Source of the DNA: Nitrospirota bacterium
GTDB taxonomy: Bacteria > Nitrospirota > UBA9217
Assembly: GCA_963840455.1 (NCBI GenBank)
Contig: CAWIYV010000001.1
Location: 32,001-96,000, forward strand
Reading direction: 5' to 3'
DNA length: 64,000 nucleotides
Position 1 is the stretch's first letter. The number at the start of each line of letters is the position of its first letter. A program made the position numbers and the translations under genes. The notes beneath the pieces are model-generated. The model was not told where the DNA came from. It did no database searches and worked only from the letters and a program-made list of their open reading frames with translations. Shown one piece after another: positions 2,663-25,613 of this stretch.

Positions 2663-2665
2663 ATC

Positions 2666-8899: not shown

Positions 8900-8929
8900 C
8901 ATATGCATAACGTCAATACGGCGCCGGTC

Positions 8930-9262: not shown

Positions 9263-9310
9263 GCTTGCCTGCTGACCCGATTTCAGGCTTGTCAGCTTGT
9301 CTGCTTGACA
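9263..9310 (+). repeat. Degenerate 8-bp tandem repeat (GCTTGNYN x6)
   Basis: gcttgcct gctgaccc gatttcag gcttgtca gcttgtct gcttgaca. Confidence 0.7.
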
Positions 9311-9334
9311 GCATATCGGCGAACGACCTATAAT
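9305..9334 (+). promoter_or_regulatory. Sigma70 promoter, probably giving a leaderless fluC mRNA
   Basis: TTGACA-N18-TATAAT; GTG start 6 nt after the -10; no SD sequence. Confidence 0.75.
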
Positions 9335-9340
9335 GCATCC

Positions 9341-9715: not shown

Positions 9716-9813
9716 GTTCAATGTTTCATGTTTAAGTGCGGGAATATACAGGGTCCAGAATTTTACCGGTAGCAAGCTTACACTTTGAACTCTGCAACTC
9801 TGAACGTTAAACG
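9716..9813. repeat. Facing 7-bp repeat arrays (GTTCAAN ... TTGAACN)
   Basis: gttcaat gtttcat gtttaag (9716-9736) and ttgaact ctgcaact ctgaacg ttaaacg (9785-9813). Confidence 0.6.
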
Positions 9814-9828
9814 GATGAAGGAGTTATT

Positions 9829-10158
9829 ATGCTCAAATCCGGACCGGCAAAGAAGCTCACCATCTATCTCGACGAGTCGGACAGGGTCCATGGCAAACCT
9901 GTGTACGAGGTCCTGCTCGACATCTTCTTTAAAAGGAAGATCTCCGGCGCCAGCGTGTTCCGAGGCATCGAAGGCTACGGACATGACCGGGTGTTCCACA
10001 CCGCGAAGATCCTCGAGCTTTCCACAACCCTACCGGTCAGGGTCGAGGTCGTGGACACGCCCATCAAGATCGACGAGATCCTGCTCGAGATCACCCCCAT
10101 TGTTCATAAGGGGCTCATCACGGTGAGCGATACACAGGTGATAAAAGCGGGAAGCTGA
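9829..10158 (+). CDS. DUF190 (PII-like) protein, a usual crcB neighbour
   Basis: LTIYLDESD..HGKP, GASVFRGIEGYG, LPVRVEVVD. Confidence 0.88.
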   Translation: MLKSGPAKKLTIYLDESDRVHGKPVYEVLLDIFFKRKISGASVFRGIEGYGHDRVFHTAKILELSTTLPVRVEVVDTPIKIDEILLEITPIVHKGLITVSDTQVIKAGS

Positions 10159-10256
10159 AACCAGCTCGACATTCAAGGTTCAATCAATGAGCACCAAAGC
10201 AGACTCAAGGTTCGAACCTTAGTTCGCGGTCATCAATTTTCAAGGCGCTCTCTGCA

Positions 10257-10902
10257 ATGCCCAAGGATTTCACCAACCGACCCTTTGACAAGCTGAAAAA
10301 AGCAGCTCGAACGACGGCCGCCGCCAGCACCCGCACCCCCGCCGCCGCCGGTTCCGGACTCAAGACCCCTTACGGAGGATGAACTTTTTACACACGCCAT
10401 GACCGATGTCCAGGTGATCGAAGCGTTCCGGGTGCTGCCCTGCGCTAGGTTATCCCGGCGGGAAGCCCCGTCACGGGAGACGCGGGACCCTGATGACGAT
10501 GCCCTTGCCATCCTCAGGCAGATCGCCGAGGGTAGCCATCCCATCAATCTGTCGGACACGCAGGAATACATCGAGTGGACCAATCCCGAGGTGCCTGGTG
10601 AGGTCATCGGGAAACTGCATACCGGGCAATTCTCGGTGCAGGGCTATCTCGATCTCCATGGCTATACCGGTGATGAGGTCAACGAGACGCTCGACGCGTT
10701 CCTTGCAGAAGCGTTCCAGCGGGACTGGAAATGCGTCAAGGTCATCCATGGCCGGGGTTTGCGTTCGGTGAAGGGGCCGGTGCTGAAGGACGCGGTCGTC
10801 CGGAGGCTGGTGGGACGGTATCGGAAGCAGGTGATCGCCTTCGTCAGCGCGCGGCAATGCGACGGAGGGCTCGGCGCGCTGTATGTACTGCTGCGCCGGT
10901 GA
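10257..10902 (+). CDS. Smr/MutS2 domain protein, with an apparent +1 frameshift in the A6 run at 10296-10301
   Basis: MPKDFTNRPFDKLKK joins the Pro-rich linker and Smr domain (LDLHG, VIHGRG, GGLGALYVLL) if one A is removed. Confidence 0.85.
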
Positions 10903-10950
10903 TTCAATATTCCAGATTCATGGTTCTTGAATGCCTGTATATTGAATGAT
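10902..10950. repeat. 7-bp repeat array at the convergent smr/pcm junction
   Basis: attcaat attccag attcatg gttc, then ttgaatg twice. Confidence 0.55.
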
Positions 10951-10959
10951 CTTTACTCT

Positions 10960-11604
10960 TTACTCTTTCCAACCCTTCGCTCCGATGAGCGGAACGAACA
11001 CACAGGGGATGCTCGTTTTCGTGACCACGCCCGATGGCGATTTGATGACCTTCATCAGGACCTGGGAGTACCGTTCGCCAACGGGGATCACCAGCCTCCC
11101 GCCGTCCTTCAGCTGCTCCACCAGGGTGTCGGGAACGTCGGGTGCCGCAGCGGTGACGATTATAGCGTCGAAGGGCGACATCTCCTTCCACCCATAGGTC
11201 CCGTCGTAGACCTTCATGACCACGTTCTTGTAGCCCAGCCGGTCGAGCGTTGCCCGAGCCTTGTCGGCAAGGGTCTTCACCCGTTCGATGGTGAATACCT
11301 TCTGGCACAGCTCGGCGAGCACCGCGGCCTGGTAGCCCGACCCGGTCCCGATCTCGAGGACCCGCTCATCGCCCTTGAGCTCCAGGAGCTCGGACATAAG
11401 CGCAACGATGTAGGGCTGGGAGATGGTCTGGCCCTCTCCGATGGGCATGGCGTGGTCGCCGTAGGCCTGCGCCCGCAAGGCCTCGGGCATGAACTCGTGG
11501 CGAGGCACTTTGCCCATGACGGCCAGGACCCGGGGGTCCGTGACGCCGCGAAAGGCGATCTGCTCGTCCACCATGCGGCTGCGTTCTTTTTCGAAATTGA
11601 TCAT
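10960..11604 (-). CDS. pcm: Protein-L-isoaspartate O-methyltransferase
   Basis: GQTISQPYIVA, VLEIGTGSGYQAAVL, FVPLIG. Confidence 0.97.
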   Translation of the reverse strand: MINFEKERSRMVDEQIAFRGVTDPRVLAVMGKVPRHEFMPEALRAQAYGDHAMPIGEGQTISQPYIVALMSELLELKGDERVLEIGTGSGYQAAVLAELCQKVFTIERVKTLADKARATLDRLGYKNVVMKVYDGTYGWKEMSPFDAIIVTAAAPDVPDTLVEQLKDGGRLVIPVGERYSQVLMKVIKSPSGVVTKTSIPCVFVPLIGAKGWKE

Positions 11605-11632
11605 GTTTGGCTCAGCTTGCAGGCTTGCGGCG

Positions 11633-12409
11633 TTATTTTAGCTCTTCATGTTTCACGGGCTGCTCATAAGCGAGCATTTCGGCAGGCTTGAGAGCATCAA
11701 ATGCGGCATAGTCGGTAAGGTCCAGGTGCAGGGGCGTGATCGAGACCATACCCCGGTCGATGGCGTCGAAGTCCGTTCCCGGCTGGCGCTCCCACTCCGG
11801 CTCCCCTCCCCCGATCCAGTAGTACTTCTTTCCGCGCGGATCGACCCGCTCCACGGTCATCTGGTGGTAGATGCGCTTGCCAAGCCGGGTGAGCGTCGTC
11901 CCCTTTATCTCCGGGAGCGGCAGGTTCGGCACGTTCACGTTCAGGAGCGTCCCTTTGGGAAGGCCCTGCGCAAGGACCAGCCGGGCGACCTGCAGGCCGA
12001 CCTCGGCGGCTTCGGCGAACAGGAAGTTCTCGCGGGCGGAGAGCGAAATGGAGAAGGAGGGAACGCCCAGGATCAGCGCCTCGATGGCGCCGGCGACCGT
12101 GCCCGAATAGGTCACGTTGTCGCCCATGTTGGGCCCCTTGTTGATGCCCGAGACCACGAGCTTCGGCACTTCTTTCAGGAGACCTTTGACCGCGATATTT
12201 ACGCAATCCGTCGGCGTGCCGTTCACGCTGTAGACGCCATCCTTCAGCTGCTCGATGAGCAGCGGCCGGTGGAGCGTCATGGAATGACCGGCCGCGCTCC
12301 GCTCCCGGTCCGGCGCGACGATGACCACTTCGTCAAGGGCTTTCAGGCGCTTTGCGAGAAGTTGGATGCCGGGTGAATAGACACCGTCATCGTTCGTTAC
12401 GAGGATCAC
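11633..12409 (-). CDS. surE: 5'/3'-nucleotidase SurE
   Basis: ILVTNDDG, GTPTDCV, SGINKGPNMG, YSGTVAGA. Confidence 0.97.
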   Translation of the reverse strand: MILVTNDDGVYSPGIQLLAKRLKALDEVVIVAPDRERSAAGHSMTLHRPLLIEQLKDGVYSVNGTPTDCVNIAVKGLLKEVPKLVVSGINKGPNMGDNVTYSGTVAGAIEALILGVPSFSISLSARENFLFAEAAEVGLQVARLVLAQGLPKGTLLNVNVPNLPLPEIKGTTLTRLGKRIYHQMTVERVDPRGKKYYWIGGGEPEWERQPGTDFDAIDRGMVSITPLHLDLTDYAAFDALKPAEMLAYEQPVKHEELK

Positions 12410-12641
12410 AGAGCACTCCTTTCAAGTGCAGTTAAGGGCTCGTCGGCGCACAAGCTTGCATGCTTATGCGATAATAGGCTGAGGTTTGGATAGACTGCGC
12501 CAACTTACTGTTTCCCCGGCTGCAAAGGTAACAGTTTTTTCTGGTCGCTATATATAGCCAAGCCAGTCATATGAGTCTTTAACCGATTTATCTTATAGCA
12601 CGATTTATTTTACATTACTAGCAGTCTCTACCGGAATTTCC

Positions 12642-12915
12642 TTATACACCTTCATTCGTGCCGTTCTGACCTGCTCCTGCAAGAAGGCGCCCATAGAGCG
12701 GCTCAATATGATCACACATACGTTTTGCGCTAAACTCACTTGACCGAGCCAATGCTGCTGCGCCCATCGTATCCTGTCCATTGGGATCAAGCAGCAAAGG
12801 AATGATCATGGCTGCCTGTGTACTCGGATCGGCTGGAGGGACCAGCCGGCCCGACTTGCCATCTTCTATCAGTTCCGGTAGACCGGTAACGACCGATGCG
12901 GCGACTTCAGGCCAA
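12642..12915 (-). pseudogene. C-terminal fragment of a GT4 glycosyltransferase
   Basis: VAASVVTGLPELIEDGKSGRLVPPADP...MGAAALARSSEFSAKRM matches the GT4 C-terminus; the N-terminal part is absent. Confidence 0.7.
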
Positions 12916-13136
12916 CCTCGACCGCAGCTGCGAACCAGAAATACTAGCGGTCGGGAAGAGAGATGGCGAATGAAGGTATGTTGAGGATCAGCGTTTCGAT
13001 TGATACAGCGACCGTCCCTGAGTAGGCCACGTCGTCGCCTAGGCTCGGGCACTTGTGGAGTGCCGTTCACGCTACAAACGCGCTACGCGCTCCATCTCCC
13101 TCTCCCGATATTTCCGCAGGGTGATCTACAGAAAAT

Positions 13137-13168
13137 AAAAGCCGCTGACAATTTTATCGGCGGCTTTT
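13137..13168. terminator. Terminator-like hairpin downstream of the DUF11 cluster
   Basis: AAAAGCCGCTGA...TCGGCGGCTTTT inverted repeat with A/T tails. Confidence 0.75.
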
Positions 13169-13206
13169 GTCATTCTTTCCCGGTTTCCGAGGTCGCCTGC
13201 CCCACC

Positions 13207-16200
13207 CTACTGTCCGGTAATCCACTTCACCGCGTCGCGGACCGAAGCTTGGTCGAACTTCATCCGGAGCTTGACGAAAGGACCTTCAGCCGTGAAGTCC
13301 GCCTTCGAGAAGTCCCGGTCCATGAAGCCGATGAAATTGTATCCCACGCTGATCCAGAGGTTCATGGCCGCCTGGAGGCCCACCGACGCCTGCGTACTGT
13401 AGTCCGTCTGGCCGATGGCAAGCGATCGGAGCATGCTGACGCGCATCCCCACGTCCACCTTTTTCGTGATGTCGTACCGCCCCTCGATGCCGGTCAGATC
13501 CGTGTAGCCGCGGTAGTCGTTCTTTTCGATGGTCTCGCTCACGAACTTGGAGCCGTACTGGAAGGACCACTGCGTCCTGCCCTCGAGCTTGAAGTTCAGC
13601 ACGAAGTTATTCACCACCCGCCAGTTCTCGTAGGGCAGGTCCACGCCCTTCTGCTCCGCCTGAAGGAAGTCGAGCCGGTCGAGGAAGATGACGCGCGTCT
13701 CTAGAGGCCGGTAGGCCGCGCCGAGGCGGAGATCTCCTGAGAAGCTGACCGGTCCCGCAACGTTGACGGTCCGGAAGGTCTGGAGGCCCGCAGCAAGCGC
13801 GAGGCCGTTGCCCACCTCTCCGTTTGCGCCCCCGAAGACACCGAGTTTGTCTTCCGTCGTCGACCAGCGCTCCTCGACGCGGCCGGTCCACGACCACCGG
13901 TCAGCCCTGTACGCCGCGCCGAGGAAAACAGCTGTGAAGTCCTCGGTGCCACCCGACGCTGGCGGGACGTTCGTGTTCATCGAGTACTCGCCCGTCTTGT
14001 GGATCGTGGCTGACCGGTCGAAACCGGTATCAAGGCTCCACCGGCTGGTCAGCTGCCAGGCCTGCTTCAAACCGGTGGTGGCGAAGAGCCGGTTGCCGTT
14101 TTCCGTGGTCTGCTGCTCCATGGTCTGATTCAGCTGGGCGCCAGTCCAGGGGGCTGACCGGATGCCAACGCGGGACGTGGCCGTGTTCGCCTGAATGCCC
14201 CGCGTTACTTCCTGGTCCGCAAAGAGCGTTGTGTTCTTGGTGAGCAGGTAGTCCATTCCCACGGTCGTGCGCGTCGGGAAGTCCACGCTCGAGTCGGAAC
14301 TGTTCAGGGTCTGATCGTGCTGGATGCGGCCGGCCAACCGCTGGGAGAACTGGTATTTCGCGCCAAGGAAGATCTGCTCGGAACGGTGAACCTCACCCGT
14401 GCCGAGCGTGTCCTCGGCGTGCCGCAGCCCGGCGAAGACCTCATAGCCCGGCATGGCGTAGCGAGCCCGCGCCTCGGCCATGTCGCGCACCGCGCCAGTG
14501 GAGAGGTTCTCCTGACGGAAGACCTCGCCACCCAGGGACCAGGGTTGGTTGATGCGGTACAGCAGATCGCCGCCGACCTTGCGCGTTCCGGTTTCGCTGC
14601 CGTTCTGCTGGCCCACCCCGAAGCCGGGCTCCTGCTCGCGGACATACACCTTCCCTTCCGCCTGCTCGGAGCGGTGCTGGATCTCGGCAAGGTACGCCGA
14701 GCCTTCAATTGTAGTCCCGGCATTATCGCTCGAGGACCGAGCGGCCTCGGCGCGCAGCGTCGTGGACGGTGTCAGCCGGACCGAAGCGTCTACGCCGGTC
14801 AGGTTATTCTCGAGGCCCCGCGCCCCTTCATGGGCATGGGTCACGCCGACCTGGCTGCGCCGATCCAGCGAGTTCACGGCTACGCGGCCGCCATAGGTGT
14901 ACGACGTGTTCGAGGGATCGAAAGTCTCGTACTCGGTCACGATGTACACGGGGTTGAAGTTCTCGTCGCGGCTCTGCACGGGGGACTTGAAGAACAGCGT
15001 GCCGGACTCGTAATCGATGGTGTAATCCACATTCCGGCTAAGCCGCTGGGCCGACACGATCACCTCGCTCTTGAACCGGTCGCGGGCCTCGATCGTGACG
15101 GACTCCGAGTTCAGCACGATGTTCCTGCGTGACAGGTGGTAGAGGCCCGATGTACCGTCGCCGCGGAGCTCGTCCTTCACGTGCGCCTGATCGGTGTCCG
15201 CCGCGAAGACGGTGTACTCGAAGCGGTCGCCCTTCATCTCGGACTTCACGCCCGTTAGGTTCCTACTGTACCGGGATAGCTCGGTCATCGTCAAGCCCGT
15301 GGCGTAGTCGCCGAAGAGAGCATAGAACTGGCCTCGCTCCAGCTTGACATACACATGCTTGGCGCTCGGTGCGTCGTTCAGCTGCTCCGTGGCGTCGCCG
15401 TACAGCATATAGTACTTGTTCGGGTCAATGTACTGATACATGTTTCGCCGGCCGCCTGGTTCCTTCGCGCTGTCGTAGGCCGCGGTCAGGAGCCACTCGC
15501 CCTTGATCACGCCCTTGGTGTAGAAGGCCACGCGACCCTCGTGGTAGAGGTCGTCCGAGCCGCCCGTGGCGCCGAAGGACTCCATGTTCCCGGTCACGAT
15601 ATTGTATCCCACCGTGCCTTCGGCAAGGCCGACGAGCACCCAGTCGCGGGCCTCGGGCCGGAGCCACGCGCGAACCTCCTGGGACCCCGACGCGAGCGGA
15701 ATGCGCACCACCGCCTCGCCGGACTGCGTCGTCGGCGCCAGCTCGATCAGGGCGATACCATCGGCGCCCACCTGGTAGCGTATCCGGTCCGTGGCCGGGC
15801 CGGAGATCGGCGACTGCTGGAGCTGGGCCGCGCGCTGCTGCGCGAAATGCGGCGGATCCACCGTAAACTCACCGGCGATCCCCTCGCGCGCCGGATGACC
15901 GTCCTTGTCCAGCAGGCGCACCGCGATGGCCGGGGGGGTGATCCCATCAGCGAGCAGCCGCGACCGTTCGGGGACGAAGACCGCTGCCACGGGGTTTCCG
16001 GAATAATGGACAATCCGGAACATCTGATGGAGCACGGTGCCCGCCTCGTCCCTGACCACGACCTCGAAGCGGTTGTCGCCCTCAACGATGTTGATACCGC
16101 TCCATGTGCTCACCGCCAGACCGCCGTCGCCCCGCTTTAGAGTGCCTTCGAAATATATCGGGTCCACGGGCTTTCCGTCTTGCAGAAGCGTGAGGCGGTG

Positions 16201-19200
16201 CACGGGGTCGTGCTTGAACGCGGCCTTAGTGCTCGGTATAGATGGATGGTAGTTCTCCGGCGGCCAGAGCCAGCTGAAACCGGCGACCGCAGACCCGAGC
16301 CACGCCGCATTGTAGTCGGGCATGGCGTTTCCTGCGGAGCGGTCCGTAGCCTCCGCGTTCGCTTCCTGTGGCCACTCCTCGCCCGGCCGCAGACCCATCG
16401 TTGCCACGGCCTTCATGCCGCTGGGTGGACCGCTCACCAGCGCCGGCACGGCGACGATGATCTTGGGAGGCCTGATCCGGAGCTCCACCCGGCGGTTCCG
16501 TGCGCGGCCCTGCTCGGTACTGTTGCTCGCCACGGGCTCGTCCGGCCCCTTGCCGTCATAGGTGATCTGGTCGGACGTGAGGCCCAGACCGTCGGCAATG
16601 TACGCTCCGACCGTGGCAGCCCGCTCGTAGGACAGCGCGTAGTTGTCGGGGTAGCACGCCTGCAGCCGGGGGCTGATTCGCCGGGCGTCGGTGTGGCCGG
16701 TGACCGTGATATGCTCCACCGACTTCTGTTTCATCCGGGAGATGACGCGGTCCAGTTCCTCTTTGTCCCGCCGGGTAAGCTCGGCGCTCCCACTTTCGAA
16801 CTCGGGATGCAACACGATGTCCGGCGCCGGACGGAGCTCGTCTCGTGTGCCGCGGACGAGCTCCGTGCTCACCGCCGGCGTGCGGTTGTTCTTGCCCTCC
16901 GGCGAGTCAGCGGTAAGGATGGCGGAGGTTCTGAACTGAGCGCCTTCAGGGCCGCTGACGGGCACAACCGTATCGAAGGAAAGCGTTCCACCCCAGTTCG
17001 CCGGGATCTCGGCGAACCGGAAGGTGACCGTGCTGCCAATCTCTTGCGGCTCATCGATGGGGAACGCCTTCCAAAACGTGCCGGTCGGATTGCTGACTGG
17101 CCTGCACTCGGGTCGCGGCCCGGCTGCAAAGGCGGCCGTACCTGGCCGGTAAACACCCCCTTCGGGCAGCATGATGGAGAGCTTCAGGTTCCGCGCCGGC
17201 ACCACGCCGACGTGCACCGGGACCGTATATTGAATGAGGTCTTTCCCCTCCTCCAGAGGCGGCTCGCCAGGTGCCGGCCGCTTCGGAGACGTGAGGATCT
17301 CGATGCCGACCTCGCCGACCTGTTTCGGCTTGAGGCCCACGTGGAAGTCCGCGCGCCAGAGCGCCCCGCCTTGGAGGTCCACAAACTGAGAGAACGGTGT
17401 GCCGGCAAACCGCGTGTTCTCCTCGCAGGCCATGACCTCGTACTTCTCCGGCAACGTCGACAGGTCGACCTGCACCACATGCGTGCCCGGCTGCACGGCT
17501 GCGAAGTGGTACATGCCGTTCTGGTCGGTCACCACGAATGTCCCATCCTCGCGGTAAATCCGCACTCCCGCGAGACCGCCCTCCTCGCGCCGCTCCTTGT
17601 CACCACAGCCGTCCACGCTGACCCGTCCGACGATGGTCGCCGTGCTCCGGAACAGGTCCTCAATGACCACGACTGTGGCCTGCGCCGTGTTCGAAATCGC
17701 GCCGGGCGTGCCGGAGGCAACGGCTGTGTTGGTTGCTATGCCCGGCCGGGCCCCAGCGCCCACCTCGGCCACATAGACGATGTCGGCCTTGGTTCCAGCT
17801 GACAGGTCGCCAGCAGAGAAAGTCAGACTGCGGCCGTCAGAGGAAACAACGGGATCGGCGGTTGTCGCGCTGTTCAAGCGTGCCGAGCCTTTCCGGTAGC
17901 GGAAGCCAATCGGCAGCCGGTCCGTGACCATGACCGCCAGGATATTGCCGGTAGAATTATTTTCCACGGTGAGGCGATAGGGTACGAAGTCCCCCACCGC
18001 TGCGGTCTGTTTGCCTGCCGTCTTGACAAGCCACAGGCTTGCGTTCACGGGGTCCACGGGGATGTCTATGTGGATGGAAGGGCCGGGATTCACAACGAAG
18101 TCCTCGCCACGCGACCCGGGTATTACGATGGCGAAGGGCCCGCCTGGCAGCGTCTGGATGATGTTGGTCGCCACCTGGGACGGCGCGCCGTAGCCAGTGG
18201 GAGGCGTCACAACAAGCCGATAGGTGCCGGGCGCGACGATGAAAGGAAACCGGTAGCCGCCGGGCGTGAAGGTGTAGATTCTGCCGCTGCCGTCCGTAGC
18301 CGTGGCGCCCGAGACAACTGCCGATGGGAAAATGCTGACGCCGTCCTCGCCGTACACCGTGGCCGGAAGGCCGGTCGAAGCATCGATCATCGTAACCGTG
18401 GCCCCGTCCACCGGGAGACCGGACACACTGCTGAAGACTAGTCCGTAGGGATCGACCAGCGCCCCTGCTACCGGTGTGTCCACCGCATCGGCACTGTCGG
18501 TGTACGACGCATTGATACGCGATCCGGTCGCCACCTGCAGGACGCCATTCCCACTCGCGGCCGGCGTAGGCCCGGTCTGGATGTACCCGGCGAAAACGCC
18601 CGTGTTCGGGCCGGATTCAAGGAGCCGCAGCACCTCCGTGTCAAGGGTCACGGGGTTCTGGATGGTAACAAGCACGGTCTCACGGACTGCGGGATCCAGG
18701 TTCTGGTCCAGATCAGTCAGCCGGATGAATACTGGTTCTCCCATGTTGAACTGCGTTGCAGGCACGAGCGGGACCGGAGCTGAGAGATCGATAGGCGCCG
18801 AGCCGACGCCTGGAGTTATATGCACCGGCGGGGCAAGCGCGATGAACGTGCCCGTCGGAGTGCCGTTATTGCTGTAGGACGTCGTCCCGACGGACACGAG
18901 CTGGGCGCCCGGCGCACCAGGGCCGTACTGCAGGAGTTCCAGGGTCGAAGGGGTGCGGAGCGCGATCGTGGTCACGGTGACGCTGTTTGAGCTGACCAGT
19001 AGAGGGACTGAGGATGCTCCGGTGGTATAGACCGCTGCTGCGGTGTTTATGATGTTCGTTCCGGGCAGCGTCGCGGAAATACTCGCTACGGGTACGAGCA
19101 TGATGGATAAGAATGCAAGAAGAACGATGATTAAGGAGAATAATGACGACGTTCTGACCGATGAGTCTCTGTTCTGACGGCTGGCGGCAGCCATGTCGGG

Positions 19201-19281
19201 GCGCACAAGTGGCATCATGCCGGTATTGCTGCCGGATGCCCGTTTCACGCGTATCGTTTGTATGCGCTTATCCCTTTCCAA
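13207..19281 (-). CDS. Giant exported protein: donor-like N-strand, Ig/carboxypeptidase-regulatory-like domains, complete DUF11 domain, SdrD-B-like domain, OmpA-C domain, predicted C-terminal beta-barrel (start uncertain)
   Basis: Hydrophobic signal ending ASISA; LVKT..VGDFVPYRLTVEN..VTDRLP..ATNTAVA (DUF11); VTGHTD..LSYERA..GRARNRRVEL (OmpA); ~800 aa of amphipathic strands ending FVKLRMKF. Confidence 0.85.
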   Translation of the reverse strand: MERDKRIQTIRVKRASGSNTGMMPLVRPDMAAASRQNRDSSVRTSSLFSLIIVLLAFLSIMLVPVASISATLPGTNIINTAAAVYTTGASSVPLLVSSNSVTVTTIALRTPSTLELLQYGPGAPGAQLVSVGTTSYSNNGTPTGTFIALAPPVHITPGVGSAPIDLSAPVPLVPATQFNMGEPVFIRLTDLDQNLDPAVRETVLVTIQNPVTLDTEVLRLLESGPNTGVFAGYIQTGPTPAASGNGVLQVATGSRINASYTDSADAVDTPVAGALVDPYGLVFSSVSGLPVDGATVTMIDASTGLPATVYGEDGVSIFPSAVVSGATATDGSGRIYTFTPGGYRFPFIVAPGTYRLVVTPPTGYGAPSQVATNIIQTLPGGPFAIVIPGSRGEDFVVNPGPSIHIDIPVDPVNASLWLVKTAGKQTAAVGDFVPYRLTVENNSTGNILAVMVTDRLPIGFRYRKGSARLNSATTADPVVSSDGRSLTFSAGDLSAGTKADIVYVAEVGAGARPGIATNTAVASGTPGAISNTAQATVVVIEDLFRSTATIVGRVSVDGCGDKERREEGGLAGVRIYREDGTFVVTDQNGMYHFAAVQPGTHVVQVDLSTLPEKYEVMACEENTRFAGTPFSQFVDLQGGALWRADFHVGLKPKQVGEVGIEILTSPKRPAPGEPPLEEGKDLIQYTVPVHVGVVPARNLKLSIMLPEGGVYRPGTAAFAAGPRPECRPVSNPTGTFWKAFPIDEPQEIGSTVTFRFAEIPANWGGTLSFDTVVPVSGPEGAQFRTSAILTADSPEGKNNRTPAVSTELVRGTRDELRPAPDIVLHPEFESGSAELTRRDKEELDRVISRMKQKSVEHITVTGHTDARRISPRLQACYPDNYALSYERAATVGAYIADGLGLTSDQITYDGKGPDEPVASNSTEQGRARNRRVELRIRPPKIIVAVPALVSGPPSGMKAVATMGLRPGEEWPQEANAEATDRSAGNAMPDYNAAWLGSAVAGFSWLWPPENYHPSIPSTKAAFKHDPVHRLTLLQDGKPVDPIYFEGTLKRGDGGLAVSTWSGINIVEGDNRFEVVVRDEAGTVLHQMFRIVHYSGNPVAAVFVPERSRLLADGITPPAIAVRLLDKDGHPAREGIAGEFTVDPPHFAQQRAAQLQQSPISGPATDRIRYQVGADGIALIELAPTTQSGEAVVRIPLASGSQEVRAWLRPEARDWVLVGLAEGTVGYNIVTGNMESFGATGGSDDLYHEGRVAFYTKGVIKGEWLLTAAYDSAKEPGGRRNMYQYIDPNKYYMLYGDATEQLNDAPSAKHVYVKLERGQFYALFGDYATGLTMTELSRYSRNLTGVKSEMKGDRFEYTVFAADTDQAHVKDELRGDGTSGLYHLSRRNIVLNSESVTIEARDRFKSEVIVSAQRLSRNVDYTIDYESGTLFFKSPVQSRDENFNPVYIVTEYETFDPSNTSYTYGGRVAVNSLDRRSQVGVTHAHEGARGLENNLTGVDASVRLTPSTTLRAEAARSSSDNAGTTIEGSAYLAEIQHRSEQAEGKVYVREQEPGFGVGQQNGSETGTRKVGGDLLYRINQPWSLGGEVFRQENLSTGAVRDMAEARARYAMPGYEVFAGLRHAEDTLGTGEVHRSEQIFLGAKYQFSQRLAGRIQHDQTLNSSDSSVDFPTRTTVGMDYLLTKNTTLFADQEVTRGIQANTATSRVGIRSAPWTGAQLNQTMEQQTTENGNRLFATTGLKQAWQLTSRWSLDTGFDRSATIHKTGEYSMNTNVPPASGGTEDFTAVFLGAAYRADRWSWTGRVEERWSTTEDKLGVFGGANGEVGNGLALAAGLQTFRTVNVAGPVSFSGDLRLGAAYRPLETRVIFLDRLDFLQAEQKGVDLPYENWRVVNNFVLNFKLEGRTQWSFQYGSKFVSETIEKNDYRGYTDLTGIEGRYDITKKVDVGMRVSMLRSLAIGQTDYSTQASVGLQAAMNLWISVGYNFIGFMDRDFSKADFTAEGPFVKLRMKFDQASVRDAVKWITGQ

Positions 19282-19306
19282 TGGTTACCGTTCTACTCCT
19301 GAAAAT

Positions 19307-19336
19307 CTCCCCTCCCACACTCAGGTGGGAGGGGAG
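19307..19336 (-). terminator. Strong intercistronic hairpin between the pilin and anchor genes
   Basis: CTCCCCTCCCAC-6nt-GTGGGAGGGGAG perfect 12-bp stem, followed by ATTTT on the minus strand. Confidence 0.7.
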
Positions 19337-19357
19337 TGGTCGCTGCAGCTTTTTAAT

Positions 19358-20461
19358 TTAGTTCACCGTAACCTGGTACTTGATCCGCGCAACACCGCCA
19401 AGGGAGTTAACAGTTAAGTTCGTGACATTGACCGTGCCTGCGGTAAAATCGGCATTGTCGACATCGCCATTCGTATTCGTGCGGCATCCGAACGTGCCGG
19501 TGCCCGGATCAACGGCGATGCCCTGGCCCGCTATGCAGCTAGGCCCTCCGTCATCGAACTGCGTCCGGAATGTCACCGGCAGCGCACCCAGTGCGTCCGC
19601 GATAGACACGTTCGTAGCATTGGACGTGCCGGGATTCGTGATCGTCACTATGTAGGTGATGACCGCGCCAGGGATCGACCGCGGCGAGGTGGTCCCGTTT
19701 ACGGGATCGGAATAGACCACCGGGGTCTTGGTCACAGTGATCCCCGATATCCGGAACGCACTCCGGTCGGATGCGCGAGCATCGCGTCCTACGTCGCCGG
19801 TGACTGTCCCGTTGCCGGCATCACCGAAGACCGTATCAACACCGTTGTAGTTGGCGACACCCTCGGCCAGGTTCGTCGCTACCCCTGCGCCGCTGCCAAA
19901 GGCGCGGGCTACCGCGGTAAGCGAAAATGCCTGGAGCGCGCCATTCGCCTCACCCGCCGGGATGTTGGCGACGATAAATACTGTCACCGAGACGTCCGAG
20001 TTGATGGTACTGAACAGCGCCGTGTCAACCCCCGGGTCATAGATACCGTTACCAGTATCCACATAGGCGGCGACCGTCGGGACGGTGACAAAGGTGTTCG
20101 CCCCGCCGTTATAGGGGTTGGTGGCCGAAACGGCCGTCACCAGCCCGAAATCGAGCTGTGTGTTCGTGATGTTCGTCACCAGGAACGTCAGGTAGGCATT
20201 CGTTGCGCCTCCCGCCACGTCGACGAAGTTCGCGTTCTGGCGGGTGACCGTCATGTTCACCCGCATACCGACCGTGAATGTGGCCGTGGAGACAAGCGCG
20301 CTTCCCGGCACTCCTCCGATGGAATAACCGACCGACACCGAGTTGCTGATGCCGGTGCCTGCAATGGTGCCCGCTGCCCAGATGGACGCAGGTACCGCAA
20401 TGGCGATCGCCGTAATGATCGCGACCGCCGTCAGGATCCTTTTAATGCTTGTTGCTTGCAT
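19358..20461 (-). CDS. Exported DUF11-family protein, candidate major pilin
   Basis: AAGGAGG RBS; signal peptide ending SIWA; N-terminal AGTIAGTGISNSVSVGY; C-terminal VTKT..SIPGAVITYIVTITN..IADAL..YQVTVN-stop. Confidence 0.8.
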   Translation of the reverse strand: MQATSIKRILTAVAIITAIAIAVPASIWAAGTIAGTGISNSVSVGYSIGGVPGSALVSTATFTVGMRVNMTVTRQNANFVDVAGGATNAYLTFLVTNITNTQLDFGLVTAVSATNPYNGGANTFVTVPTVAAYVDTGNGIYDPGVDTALFSTINSDVSVTVFIVANIPAGEANGALQAFSLTAVARAFGSGAGVATNLAEGVANYNGVDTVFGDAGNGTVTGDVGRDARASDRSAFRISGITVTKTPVVYSDPVNGTTSPRSIPGAVITYIVTITNPGTSNATNVSIADALGALPVTFRTQFDDGGPSCIAGQGIAVDPGTGTFGCRTNTNGDVDNADFTAGTVNVTNLTVNSLGGVARIKYQVTVN

Positions 20462-20661
20462 GACTTCCTCCTTAGGTTAGTGTTTTCGAATATGCAAAAT
20501 AGATTGTTCTGTGGCCGTTCTTGCCCCAGGTCTTTTTATCCCCCCTTCCATGATTCTCCGAACTTGTTCCAGAGAAATCTTCGTTCTTTTCGTTTTCGAG
20601 AATCGTTCCTATATTGTGATATCATGGCATGCTCCTCCCAAGTGCTCCGTCCTTCTCGCGG

Positions 20662-21156
20662 CTACCGGATCTGCGCACGAAACGAGACGCTTCCGCTAGC
20701 GCCAGGTGCCAGGGGGGCCGTCACGGTCCAGCGGATGTGCGTAAAATCCGCGGGCAGGGCCGGACGGACTTTGCCGTCCTTGTTCGTGATCTGCAGTTTT
20801 TCCGGTGCAGCGTATTTCTTGCCACCGTCGACGGAAAAGTCGATCTTCGTTCCCTTGCCCTCTGCGCTCTTTTCCACATAGGCCATGTGCTCGGGCACGG
20901 GGTTCGTGACCACCACCCCAGTGGCCGCCTGCTTTCCTTTGTTGACATAGCGTGTGGTGAAGATCACGACATCGCCTGGAACGACCTTGGCTTTAGAGGC
21001 CTCGATGCGCTTCACCTCGGTCGTTCCCTGGGCTGTCTTTTCCTTGACCTCCACTTCGGCTAGGCTCGTCACGACAATGTCCCCTTGCTGTTGCGCCCAG
21101 GCGGACAGGGGGGCCAGTGCCAATACCAGCATGCATCCAATGATCCTGTTCCTCAT
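20662..21156 (-). CDS. Small exported single DUF11-like domain protein, candidate chaperone
   Basis: Signal ending SAWA; VVPGDVVIFTTRYVN..VVTNPVP..FSVDGG..HIRWT..LAPGASGSVSFRAQIR-stop. Confidence 0.8.
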   Translation of the reverse strand: MRNRIIGCMLVLALAPLSAWAQQQGDIVVTSLAEVEVKEKTAQGTTEVKRIEASKAKVVPGDVVIFTTRYVNKGKQAATGVVVTNPVPEHMAYVEKSAEGKGTKIDFSVDGGKKYAAPEKLQITNKDGKVRPALPADFTHIRWTVTAPLAPGASGSVSFRAQIR

Positions 21157-21179
21157 CTGCGTTCCCTCCTTAGTATTGA

Positions 21180-22217
21180 TTAATCAATTTTTACATCGAA
21201 CGAAATGACCTGCGCAGGCGACGCGCTGGTCAGGTTTCCCACATTGACCGTAATGGTATTCGGAGAAGTGATCCCGAAATTGCCCGCGTCGGCGTCTGTG
21301 GCGTCGGTCAGCGGCACTCCGTTCAGTACTATCGTTCCGGGCTTGTAGGTGGTGCTCGCCGGGATCGCGTCGGAGATGACGATGCCAATTGCAGTTCCGG
21401 TTCCCGCCATGGTCACACTCAGGGTATAGCGGATGGTCGCTCCCGGTTGAGGCCGGTTCCCGCCGTAGGGATCGAGAATGACGGCCGTCTTGGTCACATT
21501 CACCGTGGCACCACTGGAGATGGCATAGCTTCCGGCGGCGGTCCGGGTACCCTGCGACGCGCCGATCACCGCGTCGGAACCTCCTTCGCCGGCACCGGGC
21601 AGGATGGTCCCGGCAGGACCGGTCCCGCTGGCTGAGACCGCAGTCAGGTTGACCGTACCGACGTCGCCATTGGTCATGGTGGTCGCCGGTATACTTGAAA
21701 GTACAAAGATCGTCAGAAAACCGTCAGCTGTGACCGTGCCGGTGCCCGAGCTGTACAGCACGTCCGTGCTTTGGTCAAAGACGCCGTTCCCATTAGCGTC
21801 GAAATAGATCGCCGTGACCACCGGATCGAACTGGTCCCCGCCAATGCCCGCCCCAGTCGCGGACAGAGTATATGCGTCATTGCCGTTCCCAGTGTTGGTG
21901 ATACGGAGCGTAGAGACCGCATTGGCCTGGCCCGGTAGAACGGGTACCGGAGAAGCGTCCTGCAGGGTGAGGGTAAGTTCGAGACGCTCGGCAATCCGGA
22001 GGGATGCGTTGCTGGACTGCGAGTAGTTGTTGCCGGCTATCGTGTAGTTCACGCTTACGGTGTTCATGATCACCGTGCCCGCTGCTGTTCCGACAGCACG
22101 CGCGCTGTCCTGACCCACCAGGCTTGCGGCAAGGAACGCGATGGCAATCAGGGCCTTTTTATATGTAGTTCCGCTTCTCTTCATGGGTCGATCTTTCGTG
22201 CGAGGCGGGCAGAGCAC
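21180..22217 (-). CDS. Exported DUF11-family protein, second or minor pilin (alternative start ATG 22184)
   Basis: Signal ending SARA; N-terminal VGTAAGTVIMNTVSVNY; DANGNGVFD motif; C-terminal VTKT..PGATIRYTLSV..ISDAIP..ISFDVKID-stop. Confidence 0.8.
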   Translation of the reverse strand: MLCPPRTKDRPMKRSGTTYKKALIAIAFLAASLVGQDSARAVGTAAGTVIMNTVSVNYTIAGNNYSQSSNASLRIAERLELTLTLQDASPVPVLPGQANAVSTLRITNTGNGNDAYTLSATGAGIGGDQFDPVVTAIYFDANGNGVFDQSTDVLYSSGTGTVTADGFLTIFVLSSIPATTMTNGDVGTVNLTAVSASGTGPAGTILPGAGEGGSDAVIGASQGTRTAAGSYAISSGATVNVTKTAVILDPYGGNRPQPGATIRYTLSVTMAGTGTAIGIVISDAIPASTTYKPGTIVLNGVPLTDATDADAGNFGITSPNTITVNVGNLTSASPAQVISFDVKID

Positions 22218-22232
22218 GCCTCACTTAGCCTC

Positions 22233-25200
22233 CTAATTGATCCTGACCCGGAACTGGATCGTGAACTGCGGGTTCGGCGGGCCGCTCGTTCCGTTCAACG
22301 CTCCGGCAGGGTTGATGCGTACGCCCTTCACATTCGAGTCATACCCGCCAACCGACACCGGCGTATAGTTGTACGGAGGACCGCCGCCAATCTGAGACGA
22401 GTAGGTCACAGCGGTCGCATAGTTGTACGTCACTCCGCAAGGAGGGACGGCGCTGCAAGTAAAGGTCACGGGATCGCCCGATCCGGTATCGACGTACATG
22501 CTTGTATTGGCCGGAATCGGGTCCGTGATGACGATCGAATTGCTATCAGCGGAGCCCGGGCCGCTATTGATCACCGTTACGGTATACAGCATCACCGCCC
22601 CGGGAATGGATTTTGGGTTGGTCGTATTATTGTATGGGTCGGAGAAGGTCGAGACCGCCTTAACGACCAATATGCTCGGTACAGCGCGTTCACCGATCGC
22701 GAATACGCCAAACCCACTCATACCGGTCGCCGTCGTATTATTGGGATTTTTCGCACCCACGGTCGGGTAGGTCCACACGCCGCCGCTCTTGCGTCCGACA
22801 ATAAAGTTGGCCGTGTTCGCACCGCTATCAATATCGCCATTCACAAATGTGAATGTCGCGTCATACGTTGCGAAGGCTAATGAAGCCCCTTGCGTCAGGG
22901 TCCATGTGCGGTTCACGCTCTTTCCCGCATCAATGCCTGAGGTGTTCGCCGTGGTGTCCCCATGGTCGCCCGTATCGGTGCGAGCGATCAGTACGCCGTT
23001 CACCAGCGTCGAGGTGACGTTGGCCATGGCGACCGTCACCGGGGTGTAATTCGTTGCATCGCCGATAGGGAATGTACAGAGCGTAGTGCCTGCATTGGTC
23101 GGATAATGCAGGCTCAGATTGCCCACCACAAATCCGCCGGTTCGTACGATTCCGGTAGCACAGCTGGACCCCACTTCTAGAACATTCGCGCCGGTCGTGA
23201 AAATCCCGTTGGTGAGAGTTAGCACACCGCTGACGGTGGGACTGGCGCTAAGCGTCGCTCCAAACGCATCGTTCATTATTAAGTTAGCGTAGGTGCCGGT
23301 ACCTGAAAGAACGTGAACGGCCGTGCCGCCGCTCAACGTAATGCTTCCGGTGGTGGCGGTATGCGTTCCGGTGTTGTTCACGTTGCCATTCACGGTCTGG
23401 ATGCTCGCACCACTTCCAAAGATCACACTGGTAATCGCAAGATCTCCCCTCACAACGAAGCTGCCCGCCGCGGTCTTGACGCCGCTACCGCTCACGGTGA
23501 GATTTCCATAGCCCGGAGCCGCTTCAGAAGCAATATTCTGGTTGGCGCCGCTGTATTCGACCGTGCTGGTTGCGCCGAGCGTGTGCGTTGTGTAGTTGGT
23601 TGGAAAGCTGTTGGTCCCACCGATCTTGAGCGTTGTTCCGTTGGCCACCGTGATCATGCCACCGGCAGCCGTTCGGTTCGCGGTGAAGGTAGCGAGATCC
23701 AGCGTTCCCGTGGAAACGGAAAGGTTCCCGACTTGGGTCGCATTGCCCGTCAGGGCGGCTGCATTGCCAGCACCCACATTTATCGCAAGGTTGTTAAAGT
23801 TGGAGGCACCTATCTGCGGTGCTGCGCCTGTGAAAATCACTGTTCCGGTAGGCGTGAAGGTGCCGGCCGATCTCGTCCAGGTGCCCGCGCCTGTGCCGGT
23901 CACCGTAATCGTGTTACCGTTGTCAATCAGCGTGCCGGCCGTCTGGTTGAAGGTGCCGATGGAAATTGGTGTAGCGGCGGTTAAGGTCGTTGCTCCGGTG
24001 GAAGTGTAATTGAGAGCACCGGCAACGGTGAAGCCGGCGTTTCCCGTCATCGTCGCAGCGCCTGAAATGGTAAGGTCGCCGTTGATCGTGGTCACACCTG
24101 TCATGGTCTTAGCGCCGCTGTTGCTCAGGGTAAGGTCATAATAGCTCGTCGGCTCTACTGTCTGCGCGCCGGCACGGTTATAGTTCACCGTGTTGCCGAT
24201 GGCAGACGCGTCGAGAGTGTTAATGCCCGGCGGTCCGATGAACCCGATGCTCAGCGTGCCGGTATTGGCCAGCGTGCCGGTACCAGCCAAGGCGGTCGTG
24301 ACGTTTAGATTTCCGTTATTGGTCAAAGTCACCCCGGTAACGGTAACGTTGGGGATGGTGGTAATAGTTGTTCCACCAAAGCTCTGGCTATTGGTGTTAA
24401 AGGCGTAGACCCCAGTGCCCGCAGTGAAGGTTCCGTTGTTGATCAGGCCGCCCTGCATCGTAATGTTCTCATTAGCGCTATTGTTCCAGGTGCCGCCGTT
24501 ATTGATCGTGATGTTTCCCGTGTAGGTTTTTGTCCCTGCTGCATTGTTGTGAGTCAACGTGCCTGACACTGACGTCGTACCCGTCACTACAGTGTTTAAA
24601 CCGCCCACGGTCAAGGTCGTGCCCGCGCCGACGGAGAGATTGCCGAGGATGTTCAGCGTGCCGGCAGCGGGAGTTTTTGTACCGCTCCCCGACAGAACAA
24701 GATTCGGGTACGTCATCCCGGCCGTTGTGATTGCCTGATTTCCGGCTAAAGCGAGTGTTATCGTTGCTGTTGAGTTTCCTAACGCGTTGAAGGTGTTGGT
24801 TCCTGAATTAGCGGCAAATGGAGTGGCATTGTAAAATTGCAGGTTGGGCGAGCCCGACAATTCCACTTTACAGGTCCCATTACATGCCCCCCCCGGTCCG
24901 CCATTGAGATCAATTCTGTCCAATAACCAGGTTCCCGAACCGGAGAAGGTAGAAGTGACGTTGTTTCCCGCAAGGTAGATGGCATTTGTGCTGCCAGAAA
25001 CAGTGAAGTTGACGCTGCCATTGTTGACGAGGTTGCCCCCCAAGTATATGTCGGAGTTGGCTCCAGCGGCGATAGCAAGAGTTCCTCCTGAATCGATCTG
25101 CAGGCTCGCCAACGTGTTAGTGTTGGCATTGAACGTTACCGTGCTGCCGTTCGGTACGATGACTGAGTCGCCTGCTGCCGGCACATGCCCGCAACTCCAG

Positions 25201-25613
25201 GTAGCCGCCGTTCCCCAATTGACGGCACCGGTGTTGCTGGTGCAGGTCGCCGCCTGCGCAACAGATCCCCACGCACCCAGCCAGATCAGCATTACTGTCA
25301 CGATGCAAATTTTGAAAAATTTTCTTATTGCCCGTCTTGGCACGCTAGCCTGTCCGCTGTGGTCAACCGAACCATCCATTTTGTTCCATGAAAGTGGCAC
25401 TGTTCGCGACGCGGCAGACTTCTCTCTTCTTCTGCATTCCGGTATGAGTCGGGATAGTTCTTTGTCTTGCACGTTCACTTGGTCTTTATATTCCCTCATC
25501 GCGCCAACAACGTAGCGCATTGTGTACTGCCTCATCGATGACAGCATCCGTTCTCTCTTGTCATCTGAATTGACCATAATAAACACCCTCACAAATACAA
25601 AAAAACATGGCAT
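22233..25613 (-). CDS. Large Thr/Gly/Asn-rich fibrillar adhesin with C-terminal DUF11-like domain (true start probably internal, e.g. ATG 25379)
   Basis: Signal ending VAQA; WGTAATWSCGHVPAAGD N-domain; repeats such as YxNLxxSGSGxKT; C-terminal VVKA..SIPGAVMLYTVTVIN..ITDPIP..IQFRVRIN-stop. Confidence 0.8.
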   Translation of the reverse strand: MPCFFVFVRVFIMVNSDDKRERMLSSMRQYTMRYVVGAMREYKDQVNVQDKELSRLIPECRRREKSAASRTVPLSWNKMDGSVDHSGQASVPRRAIRKFFKICIVTVMLIWLGAWGSVAQAATCTSNTGAVNWGTAATWSCGHVPAAGDSVIVPNGSTVTFNANTNTLASLQIDSGGTLAIAAGANSDIYLGGNLVNNGSVNFTVSGSTNAIYLAGNNVTSTFSGSGTWLLDRIDLNGGPGGACNGTCKVELSGSPNLQFYNATPFAANSGTNTFNALGNSTATITLALAGNQAITTAGMTYPNLVLSGSGTKTPAAGTLNILGNLSVGAGTTLTVGGLNTVVTGTTSVSGTLTHNNAAGTKTYTGNITINNGGTWNNSANENITMQGGLINNGTFTAGTGVYAFNTNSQSFGGTTITTIPNVTVTGVTLTNNGNLNVTTALAGTGTLANTGTLSIGFIGPPGINTLDASAIGNTVNYNRAGAQTVEPTSYYDLTLSNSGAKTMTGVTTINGDLTISGAATMTGNAGFTVAGALNYTSTGATTLTAATPISIGTFNQTAGTLIDNGNTITVTGTGAGTWTRSAGTFTPTGTVIFTGAAPQIGASNFNNLAINVGAGNAAALTGNATQVGNLSVSTGTLDLATFTANRTAAGGMITVANGTTLKIGGTNSFPTNYTTHTLGATSTVEYSGANQNIASEAAPGYGNLTVSGSGVKTAAGSFVVRGDLAITSVIFGSGASIQTVNGNVNNTGTHTATTGSITLSGGTAVHVLSGTGTYANLIMNDAFGATLSASPTVSGVLTLTNGIFTTGANVLEVGSSCATGIVRTGGFVVGNLSLHYPTNAGTTLCTFPIGDATNYTPVTVAMANVTSTLVNGVLIARTDTGDHGDTTANTSGIDAGKSVNRTWTLTQGASLAFATYDATFTFVNGDIDSGANTANFIVGRKSGGVWTYPTVGAKNPNNTTATGMSGFGVFAIGERAVPSILVVKAVSTFSDPYNNTTNPKSIPGAVMLYTVTVINSGPGSADSNSIVITDPIPANTSMYVDTGSGDPVTFTCSAVPPCGVTYNYATAVTYSSQIGGGPPYNYTPVSVGGYDSNVKGVRINPAGALNGTSGPPNPQFTIQFRVRIN

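Follow-up and report, generated by a model that had tools for sequence, protein, structure and literature searches.

A DUF11 domain split between the secreted proteins of a Nitrospirota operon: a candidate for a covalently locked surface fibre assembled without sortase

The window analysed here is a stretch of 64,000 nucleotides from a Nitrospirota bacterium (GenBank assembly GCA_963840455.1, contig CAWIYV010000001.1, positions 32,001 to 96,000 of the forward strand), and window coordinates are counted from its first letter. Its minus strand carries an operon of five genes (13207-25613) that encode, in the order of transcription, an adhesin, a 345-amino-acid (345-aa) pilin, a 164-aa DUF11 protein, a 367-aa pilin and a 2024-aa anchor. 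Judged by sequence comparison, a domain of the DUF11 family (now CLIPPER) is split across the chains of this operon, and the split is real and conserved. We consider it probable that a donor hairpin at the start of one subunit complements the truncated domain at the end of its neighbour and is locked there by an autocatalytic Lys-Asn bond, in the order adhesin, pilins, anchor. An initial annotation had proposed a scheme of this kind for positions 19027-22700, which cover only part of the operon; it recognized the adhesin, both pilins and the 2024-aa protein and left out the fifth gene, the 164-aa DUF11 protein at 20662-21156.

The proposed mechanism starts from the adhesin and both pilins, which end in a CnaA-like DUF11/CLIPPER domain that keeps its Lys and its catalytic Asp and lacks its last two strands. 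Signal-peptide cleavage would expose the first ~35 residues of the next subunit (pilin or anchor), which correspond exactly to the missing hairpin, with the Asn on its first strand. Insertion of this hairpin would complete the neighbour's domain and set the Asn beside the Lys and the Asp, and the isopeptide bond could then form autocatalytically with loss of ammonia (NH3). The outcome would be the continuous geometry of a tandem-domain stalk, rebuilt across chain breaks, and the OmpA-like domain and presumed barrel of the anchor would tether the assembly to both wall and outer membrane.

Every motif string quoted in the initial annotation is found in the translations. The adhesin and both pilins do keep Lys and Asp and yet stop before the Asn-bearing part, as was claimed; on the 345-aa pilin the match to the domain profile ends 3 residues short of the protein end, and this end point is conserved in homologues. 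The C-terminal domain of the adhesin holds Lys985 (22659-22661) and Asp1031 (22521-22523) and finishes the chain with ...FRVRIN; the 345-aa (first) pilin has Asn52, Lys243 and Asp283 and ends ...FDVKID, and the 367-aa (second) pilin has Asn40, Lys245 and Asp289 and ends ...YQVTVN, a stop codon following in each case. A contiguous Lys/Asp/Asn triad within one domain is present only in the internal DUF11 of the anchor, whereas the C-terminal domains of the adhesin and the pilins end before the Asn hairpin. A complete-domain profile of 158 positions, built from 196 domain copies in 120 listed anchor homologues, aligns on the 345-aa pilin at positions 24-101; the protein stops 3 residues beyond, and past its end the profile continues for ~35 more positions that make up the Asn strand and the last strand. 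With hhalign, the first 39 columns of the mature pilin fall on columns 105-139 of the complete-domain alignment (161 columns in all), the two Asn positions coinciding, and the hairpin profile also matches the anchor, in agreement with the earlier placement of the missing segment at the mature N-termini of both pilins and the anchor. The truncation point together with the hhalign placement indicates that ~35 residues are donated, which form a hairpin of two strands and carry the Asn on the penultimate strand of the domain, and not the single strand first described.

Conservation was assessed in two sets of pilins. The first is an alignment of 116 sequences, comprising 114 of 120 listed matches and the two window pilins; P0006, which is identical to a window protein, and the short fragments P0016, P0021, P0023, P0029 and P0121 were dropped. 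Asn52 is kept in 113/116, Lys243 and Asp283 in 116/116 each and the common end column in 111/116, and because all four are conserved in these homologues the match between hairpin and domain end is not attributable to chance. The second set consists of 105 pilin-sized representatives at <=50% identity, newly listed among the best 150 of 1737 pilin-family matches (106 counting P0017). Here Lys is found in 104 and Asp in 103, and the donor position is occupied by Asn in 91, Ser in seven, Thr in five, Tyr in one and Asp in one. Against the Pfam PF01345 cut-off of 24.6 bits, the anchor scores 44.5 and the small protein 35.1, and the two pilins fall below it at 21.1 and 18.0; with TIGR01451, the pilins reach 35.1 and 27.6 bits, above the cut-off of 24. 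The adhesin matches neither family and was detected only by our own pilin C-domain profile (residues 981-1045, E 2e-9); its C-terminal domain was aligned with 12 other adhesins and six pilins. The second pilin is matched by the profiles of the pilin N-terminus (E 2e-13), N-domain (E 6e-26) and C-terminus (E 2e-19).

The two ends of the proposed fibre are orphans. The adhesin starts with a signal peptide, and its G8 domain (Pfam E 3.5e-8) and long Gly/Thr/Asn-rich repeats suggest a beta-helix-like head with a binding or enzymatic role; the pilin hairpin profile gives no match at its N-terminus, that is, it has no donor. The heads of its relatives range from 634 to 1735 aa with the C-terminal acceptor domain kept, as if the tips were exchangeable. 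The anchor consists of a signal peptide, an N-terminal hairpin, immunoglobulin-like (Ig-like) stalk domains including one complete DUF11 (Pfam, 418-534, E 2.2e-11), an OmpA-like, peptidoglycan-binding domain (828-930, E 5.7e-16) and a C-terminal region of ~800 aa. Its hairpin is matched by the pilin hairpin profile at residues 71-104 with an independent E-value (iE) of 1.9e-4, and the same profile finds a hairpin within the first 160 residues of 95/120 listed anchors (iE < 0.01). The Asn is in register in 104/120, the other 16 being N-terminally cut gene calls or a divergent variant; 104/120 is the unbiased count, since one anchor alignment was preselected by a regular expression for the donor (85/121) and is circular for donor conservation. 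The internal DUF11 has Lys420, Asp454 and Asn518, invariant in 63/63 aligned anchors, and presumably forms an intramolecular bond. Because this domain is complete with its own invariant triad, the donor of the anchor is not needed by the anchor's own domains.

The accessible text of PMC12617251 reports that DUF11 has been renamed CLIPPER and that crystal structure 9IFR has an intramolecular Lys-Asn bond stabilizing the domain (Lys715, Asp748, Asn806). The anchor triad aligns with that of 9IFR, weakly in sequence (E 1.3); in a Foldseek search with the anchor model (residues 71-565), 9IFR is found at E 2.6e-6 with a template-modelling (TM) score of 0.68 on the target over 128 columns, and BcpA, SpaD, RrgB and SpaA are found as well. 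The whole anchor matched only OmpA-like domains among solved structures. Its C-terminal 795 residues have a feature similarity of 0.97-0.98 to unnamed clusters of ~850 aa, one of them auto-named 'outer membrane protein family protein', and a sub-threshold match to YfaZ (19 bits against a cut-off of 23).

An acceptor-only adhesin belongs at the distal end of a fibre and a donor-only anchor at the proximal end, and the existence of orphan acceptors and orphan donors implies that at least some complementation takes place between chains. The order adhesin, pilins, anchor given in the initial annotation is backed by an orphan acceptor in 12/13 related loci and an orphan donor in 95/120 anchors. These 13 loci were retrieved for gene-order comparison and make 14 with the window. 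All 13 have the order pilin, small DUF11 protein, pilin, anchor, with an extra pilin in L011. An acceptor-only adhesin-like gene is present in 12: ten have it upstream, whereas in L009 and L010 it follows the anchor. At the L011 locus no such gene was seen. Acceptor domains across the loci have Asp in 42/42 and Lys in 41/42, one Lys strand lying outside the slice. The donor Asn is found in 14/14 second pilins, in the 12 aligned anchors and in only 9/14 first pilins, so the universal donor Asn originally assumed does not hold for the first pilin, which has Ser in the remaining five. In these five (L011, L013, L018, L019 and L020) and in 13/105 representatives, the Ser, Thr or Tyr that replaces the Asn is often followed by a Gln. 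Every pilin without a donor Asn of its own has nevertheless retained Lys and Asp (14/14 among the 105 representatives, 5/5 in the loci). One would expect this if the two residues serve the Asn of the next subunit, but not if they serve the one in their own chain. A covariation search of donors against acceptors found no acceptor loss that matches the loss of donor Asn, so that no pairing was assigned. The asymmetry between Asn and Lys/Asp fits heterotypic junctions.

A second system in the same genome (contig 9, L022, 256000-275900) encodes an adhesin, three pilins and an anchor paralogue. The 1327-aa adhesin is acceptor-only and the 1985-aa anchor paralogue donor-only. Its pilins, two nearly identical ones of 205 aa and one of 207 aa, each consist of a hairpin and a truncated domain alone, with the Asn at about mature residue 3 and 29 residues ahead of their own Lys. 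This spacing is shorter than that in tandem arrays, where the Asn of one domain lies 38 residues before the Lys of the next and Lys and Asn of the same domain are 106-107 residues apart. Tandem DUF11 arrays are described as beads on a string in the accessible text of a preprint (10.1101/2025.08.19.671072). The last strand should end at the exit of the elongated domain and the Lys strand should start at its entry, so a connection of ~4 residues could hardly close the domain in cis; self-insertion is probably excluded sterically in these short pilins.

Relatives in which the parts lie in line in one chain point the same way. P0331 (3865 aa) has six junctions of a truncated-type domain, a hairpin-profile match (iE 4.8e-5 to 1.3e-2) and a pilin N-domain, and the hairpin abuts the preceding domain (for example 2953 to 2955), of which it forms part just as in every complete DUF11. 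A pilin gene corresponds to such a repeat cut between domain and hairpin, and reassembly between chains would restore the same stalk. A word-index search for longer or fused forms returned two proteins only. In one of them, P0247 (942 aa), a donor hairpin and an N-domain are accompanied by a DUF11 that looks complete by eye, of which the profile matched only positions 18-56/158. In P0259 (1335 aa), which like P0331 came from an exhaustive search, an adhesin-type domain end is apparently fused directly to a pilin without a signal peptide, a hint only, as the upstream similarity is weak (E 0.033); in this one case the domain before the fused hairpin seems to have neither Lys nor Asp, and the Asn has shifted from its usual register, as though a continuous chain could do without the lock. 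On contig 11 (L023, 630000-649900), a 3077-aa tandem-DUF11 open reading frame (ORF; 6624-15857, minus strand) adjoins a 1715-aa ORF (1426-6573, minus strand) whose product resembles the anchor (E 3e-59); the pair may be a single-chain version of the adhesin and its outer-membrane partner.

Several observations weigh against this interpretation. Taken alone, the hhalign match between hairpin and domain end is weak (P = 0.0065, probability 5.8%). Some 12-36% of first-pilin donors bear Ser or Thr instead of Asn, and in five of 14 loci the first pilin has Ser while the adhesin of the same locus keeps Lys and Asp, which implies promiscuous junctions or at least one non-covalent junction with an unused Lys/Asp pair. 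The anchor occupies more than one ORF in four loci (two in L014; three or more in L015, L018 and L019), and these split genes could be frameshifts, pseudogenes or assembly errors; the L013 anchor is cut by a contig end, and one pilin is also split in L016 and L019. The large outer-membrane beta-barrel assumed for the C-terminal region of the anchor is putative, judged from the similarities given above. The AlphaFold2 monomer of the mature 345-aa pilin, with a predicted local distance difference test (pLDDT) of 93.9 and a predicted TM score of 0.70, most likely places the hairpin in the pilin's own C-terminal domain. Finally, the second pilin of L012, L013 and L017 (3/14 loci) has a Cys on the donor strand a few residues before the Asn and an extra Cys ~170 residues downstream; this pair suggests a possible disulfide that might report where the hairpin is placed and is compatible with an intrachain contact, though it fits both cis and trans.

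The last two points would be accounted for if the hairpins of the long pilins folded into their own C-terminal domains, each forming a circularly permuted DUF11 with an inserted N-domain and an intramolecular bond, so that only adhesin and anchor would pair between chains, or nothing would. In the pilin model the hairpin strands (8-19 and 22-33) are continuous over 12 residues with block pLDDT values of 87, 96 and 96, unlike the orphan hairpin of the anchor, which has broken strands and values of 72, 78, 82 and 74 in a model that otherwise lies at 88-97. The chain could be led back by a conserved Gly-rich linker of ~40 residues and by an additional strand that precedes the Lys strand, and the accessible text of PMC6615685 describes FimA of type 1 pili as reportedly either a self-complemented monomer or a polymer. 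We nevertheless regard such self-insertion as unlikely. A monomer prediction cannot separate cis from trans contacts: it must place coevolving contacts in cis wherever possible, so the model makes insertion in cis sterically conceivable without demonstrating it, and the lower pLDDT and broken strands of the anchor hairpin, which has no partner in cis, favour a partner in trans. Self-insertion leaves the pilins without a role between orphan acceptor and orphan donor (13/13 loci) and does not explain why Lys and Asp are invariant in the 14/14 pilins that lack their own Asn; the in-line relatives, where the hairpin directly follows the preceding domain, and the contig-9 pilins, which have almost no linker, also speak against it. 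Other structural comparisons do not bear on the choice. A three-copy complex prediction of the mature 345-aa pilin scored 0.26 and 0.30 against a mark of 0.42 in runs that had no controls, and counts neither for nor against binding. Foldseek matches of the pilin model are generic tandem-Ig proteins at TM 0.2-0.3 (integrin legs, the SafDAA and CfaB donor-strand fusions, BspA), silent on cis or trans, and the 50 listed do not include 9IFR. Among solved structures, the only match of the pilin profile (E 0.18) was a histidine kinase, which has no bearing on the question.

Complementation between subunits might also occur without any bond, the Lys, Asp and Asn being inherited packing residues and strand insertion alone giving stability, as in chaperone-usher pili. 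Some junctions must indeed work bond-free, given Ser, Thr or Tyr donors in 13/105 representatives and Ser in 5/14 first pilins, and BsaA N35A oligomers are stable in sodium dodecyl sulfate until heated, according to the accessible text of 10.1101/2024.11.04.621531. We think this improbable as a general account, since Lys and Asp are near-invariant (116/116 each, and 104/105 and 103/105 in the second set) and lie in register with the 9IFR triad, where the bond was observed, whereas the triad positions are not universally conserved across DUF11 and some domains are bond-less (PMC12617251, in its accessible part). Least credible, to our mind, is that there is no complementation at all, the hairpin being the first two strands of the domain that follows, the C-terminal domains naturally short, self-sufficient DUF11 domains and the products independent surface proteins. 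The weak statistics of the hairpin match and the sub-threshold Pfam scores of the pilin C-terminal domains agree with such a view. It leaves unexplained, however, why domains that have no Asn of their own should keep Lys and Asp invariant, and why both pilins and anchors should conserve an Asn to ~90% at a distance of ten residues from the mature N-terminus; moreover, the pilin hairpin profile matches the Asn strand of complete internal DUF11 domains (iE 7.5e-3 in L013, 0.02 in L015), and in the short pilins no domain other than the truncated one follows the hairpin.

Donor-hairpin complementation between subunits is thus the reading that we prefer. Of the earlier claim that a neighbour's strand completes each domain and is covalently locked, the split and the orphan ends speak in favour; the bond is predicted from the conserved triad alone, and the long pilins could self-insert. 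A bond across the split would follow from the register of the triad and by analogy with complete domains. Complementation between chains in the long pilins we likewise infer, and the same applies to the subunit order and copy numbers, to the route of export and to what the 164-aa protein does. The polymerization envisaged at first may be replaced by a defined four-part stalk, with which the data are equally compatible; the simplest chain, because it matches the gene order, is adhesin, first pilin, second pilin, anchor.

The 164-aa protein has a signal peptide and a DUF11 core (Pfam 35.1 bits), and it stops at the end strand of the acceptors with no hairpin. It is present in the window and in 13/13 other loci, the L019 copy being truncated to 119 aa. 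In its family the position of the Lys is variable and the catalytic Asp is replaced by Asn in most aligned copies; its mature N-terminus (QQKG...) has no hairpin-profile match. We hypothesize that it acts as a chaperone, a decoy acceptor or a non-covalent subunit; a chaperone role is conceivable because an acceptor-like domain that is unable to lock its guest could hold donor hairpins until assembly.

The proposed fibre can be compared with several known systems. Type 1 and P pili, assembled by the chaperone-usher pathway, likewise have a tip adhesin with a groove only and a last subunit that ends the fibre at the outer membrane. Chaperone-usher pili are non-covalent, receive one donated strand per junction and require a PapD-like chaperone and an usher. 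The window's genome (100% complete by marker count) has no match to the usher family PF00577, for which an E. coli control was positive, and no PapD-like chaperone was matched in the five operon proteins or in ten flanking ORFs, no genome-wide search for it having been made. Sortase pili of monoderms share Ig-like CnaA/CnaB modules, isopeptide chemistry and a covalent fibre. There, a sortase joins the subunits, linking a Lys to a C-terminal Thr carboxylate; the pilins described here differ in ending ...V.IN/ID right after the last strand, with no LPXTG-type sorting signal. Sortase families gave no match in the window's genome, with positive controls in three Gram-positives, which agrees with the sortase-free assembly of the initial annotation. 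In SpyTag/SpyCatcher and SnoopTag/SnoopCatcher, one reactive residue sits on a peptide and the other two on the domain that this peptide completes, and the pair locks spontaneously; both were cut in the laboratory from intramolecular CnaB-type domains. In contrast to these engineered pairs, the split reported here appears natural, the domain is CnaA-like and the tag is a hairpin.

Closer relatives are found among isopeptide domains and donor-strand fibres. With CLIPPER (PF01345/9IFR), the present domains have family, fold and triad order in common, with the Asn on the penultimate strand and one complete copy in the anchor; they differ in that 9IFR holds the whole triad in one chain and bonds within it, whereas in the operon the Asn hairpin is missing from the end of three proteins and opens three. 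The accessible part of PMC12617251 does not mention split or intermolecular CLIPPER forms. The closest precedent is BsaA of C. perfringens, for which modelling and three mutants (N35A, K74A and E56A) gave support to an exchange of donor strands that is then locked by a Lys-Asn bond (10.1101/2024.11.04.621531). As far as the accessible text of that preprint goes, BsaA resembles the present system in inserting an N-terminal donor into the neighbour's sheet, in forming the Lys-Asn isopeptide by way of an acidic residue of the acceptor, in being sortase-free and in sharing out the triad between donor and acceptor, which in our case is seen at the sequence level only. By the same text, it differs in its TasA-like fold, monoderm host, SipW peptidase and homopolymeric nature, compared with the CnaA-like DUF11 here, and it lacks an acceptor-only tip and a donor-only outer-membrane anchor; the present system has a two-strand hairpin and a catalytic Asp. 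No TasA-type family or SipW-type peptidase is among the Pfam matches of the five operon proteins and the ten flanking ORFs. Threads of Sulfolobus acidocaldarius also combine donor-strand complementation with a proposed inter-subunit isopeptide to an Asn, with ammonia released; their subunit, however, is archaeal and without a Pfam family, and the bond links Asn57 of subunit n with the alpha-amine at the N-terminus of subunit n+2, with no Lys/Asp/Asn triad (accessible text of PMC9715654). Donor-strand insertion with an isopeptide lock (in BsaA, and by other chemistry in the Sulfolobus threads), the polarity logic of chaperone-usher pili and the CLIPPER domain are thus already known. In the literature searched, we could not find a naturally split CLIPPER/CnaA-like domain, hairpin donation or a diderm donor-strand isopeptide fibre with a dedicated OmpA/barrel anchor, although the supplements of PMC12617251 and of the BsaA preprint might list such forms.

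The features of the operon and of the second system are collected in Table 1. The database form of the 345-aa ORF has 334 aa and begins at Met12; this is probably the real start of the first pilin, the public start call being likely off at 22182-22217, and its signal peptide is predicted to be cleaved after Ala41. The database form of the anchor has 1964 aa and begins within the presumed signal peptide, whereas the longer ORF has a normal signal peptide ending ...SISA right before the donor, and the public start call (19069-19281) is probably wrong. By Pfam, the ten flanking ORFs are unrelated to the operon, with SurE and PCMT on one side and a CpsB phosphatase, a MerR regulator and a heptosyltransferase on the other.

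Table 1. Features of the split-domain operon in the window and ORFs of the second system
Feature	Position	Strand	Basis
Putative tip adhesin, 1126 aa, acceptor only	22233..25613	-	Translation; Pfam G8
Adhesin C-terminal truncated DUF11-type domain, ends ...FRVRIN, no Asn hairpin	22236..22691	-	Pilin C-domain profile
First pilin, 345-aa ORF, donor and acceptor	21180..22217	-	Translation; TIGR01451; AlphaFold2 monomer
First-pilin donor hairpin, residues 42-77, Asn52 = 22062-22064	21987..22094	-	Homologue alignment; hhalign
First-pilin acceptor domain, residues 232-345, Lys243 and Asp283	21183..21524	-	Homologue alignment; complete-domain profile
Small secreted DUF11 protein, 164 aa	20662..21156	-	Pfam DUF11
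Second pilin, 367 aa	19358..20461	-	Translation; profile matches
Second-pilin donor hairpin, residues 30-66, Asn40	20264-20374	-	Profile match
Second-pilin acceptor domain, residues 240-367, Lys245 and Asp289	19361-19744	-	Profile match
Anchor, 2024-aa ORF, donor only	13207..19281	-	Translation; Pfam OmpA and DUF11
Anchor orphan donor hairpin, residues 71-104, Asn79 = 19045-19047	18970..19071	-	Pilin hairpin profile
Complete DUF11/CLIPPER inside anchor, ~residues 418-545, Lys420/Asp454/Asn518	17647..18030	-	Alignment; Foldseek
Anchor OmpA-like domain, residues 828-930	16492..16800	-	Pfam
Anchor C-terminal region, residues 1230-2024, putative outer-membrane beta-barrel	13210..15594	-	Feature similarity
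L022 ORFs (second system)	2174-6157, 7849-8466, 8579-9196, 9337-9960, 9963-15920	+	

The pilin family is large, with 1737 matches at E <= 1e-30 in 1.84 billion representatives, giant tandem DUF11 proteins included, and for the anchor family 544 or more members were counted at E <= 0.001; source labels of the members include Nitrospirota, Desulfobacteraceae, Geomobilimonas and Alphaproteobacteria. Within the phylum, the pilin profile was found in 22/301 sampled genomes, the window's own among them, and in 18/63 of the window's own family. It is conceivable, and we suggest it only tentatively, that these proteins form an undescribed and widespread class of diderm fibre, in which a tandem-Ig stalk has been cut into secreted modules that are stitched together again outside the cytoplasm by CLIPPER hairpin-tag/catcher pairs. 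On this same tentative footing, the 164-aa protein, without Lys and Asp, would be a decoy acceptor that binds donor hairpins in a reversible way and so guards against self-locking, the 2000-aa OmpA/barrel protein would be both last subunit and outer-membrane conduit, and at least two mutually orthogonal tag/catcher sets, those of the window and contig 9, would coexist in one genome. If complementation and lock are as proposed, the covalent assembly of surface fibres without sortase or usher would be added to the repertoire of diderm bacteria, and a tandem-domain adhesin would be convertible into a modular kit with exchangeable tips. The junctions would then be natural and possibly orthogonal pairs for ligating a peptide hairpin to a protein, and how isopeptide domains avoid reacting with themselves would become a directly testable question.

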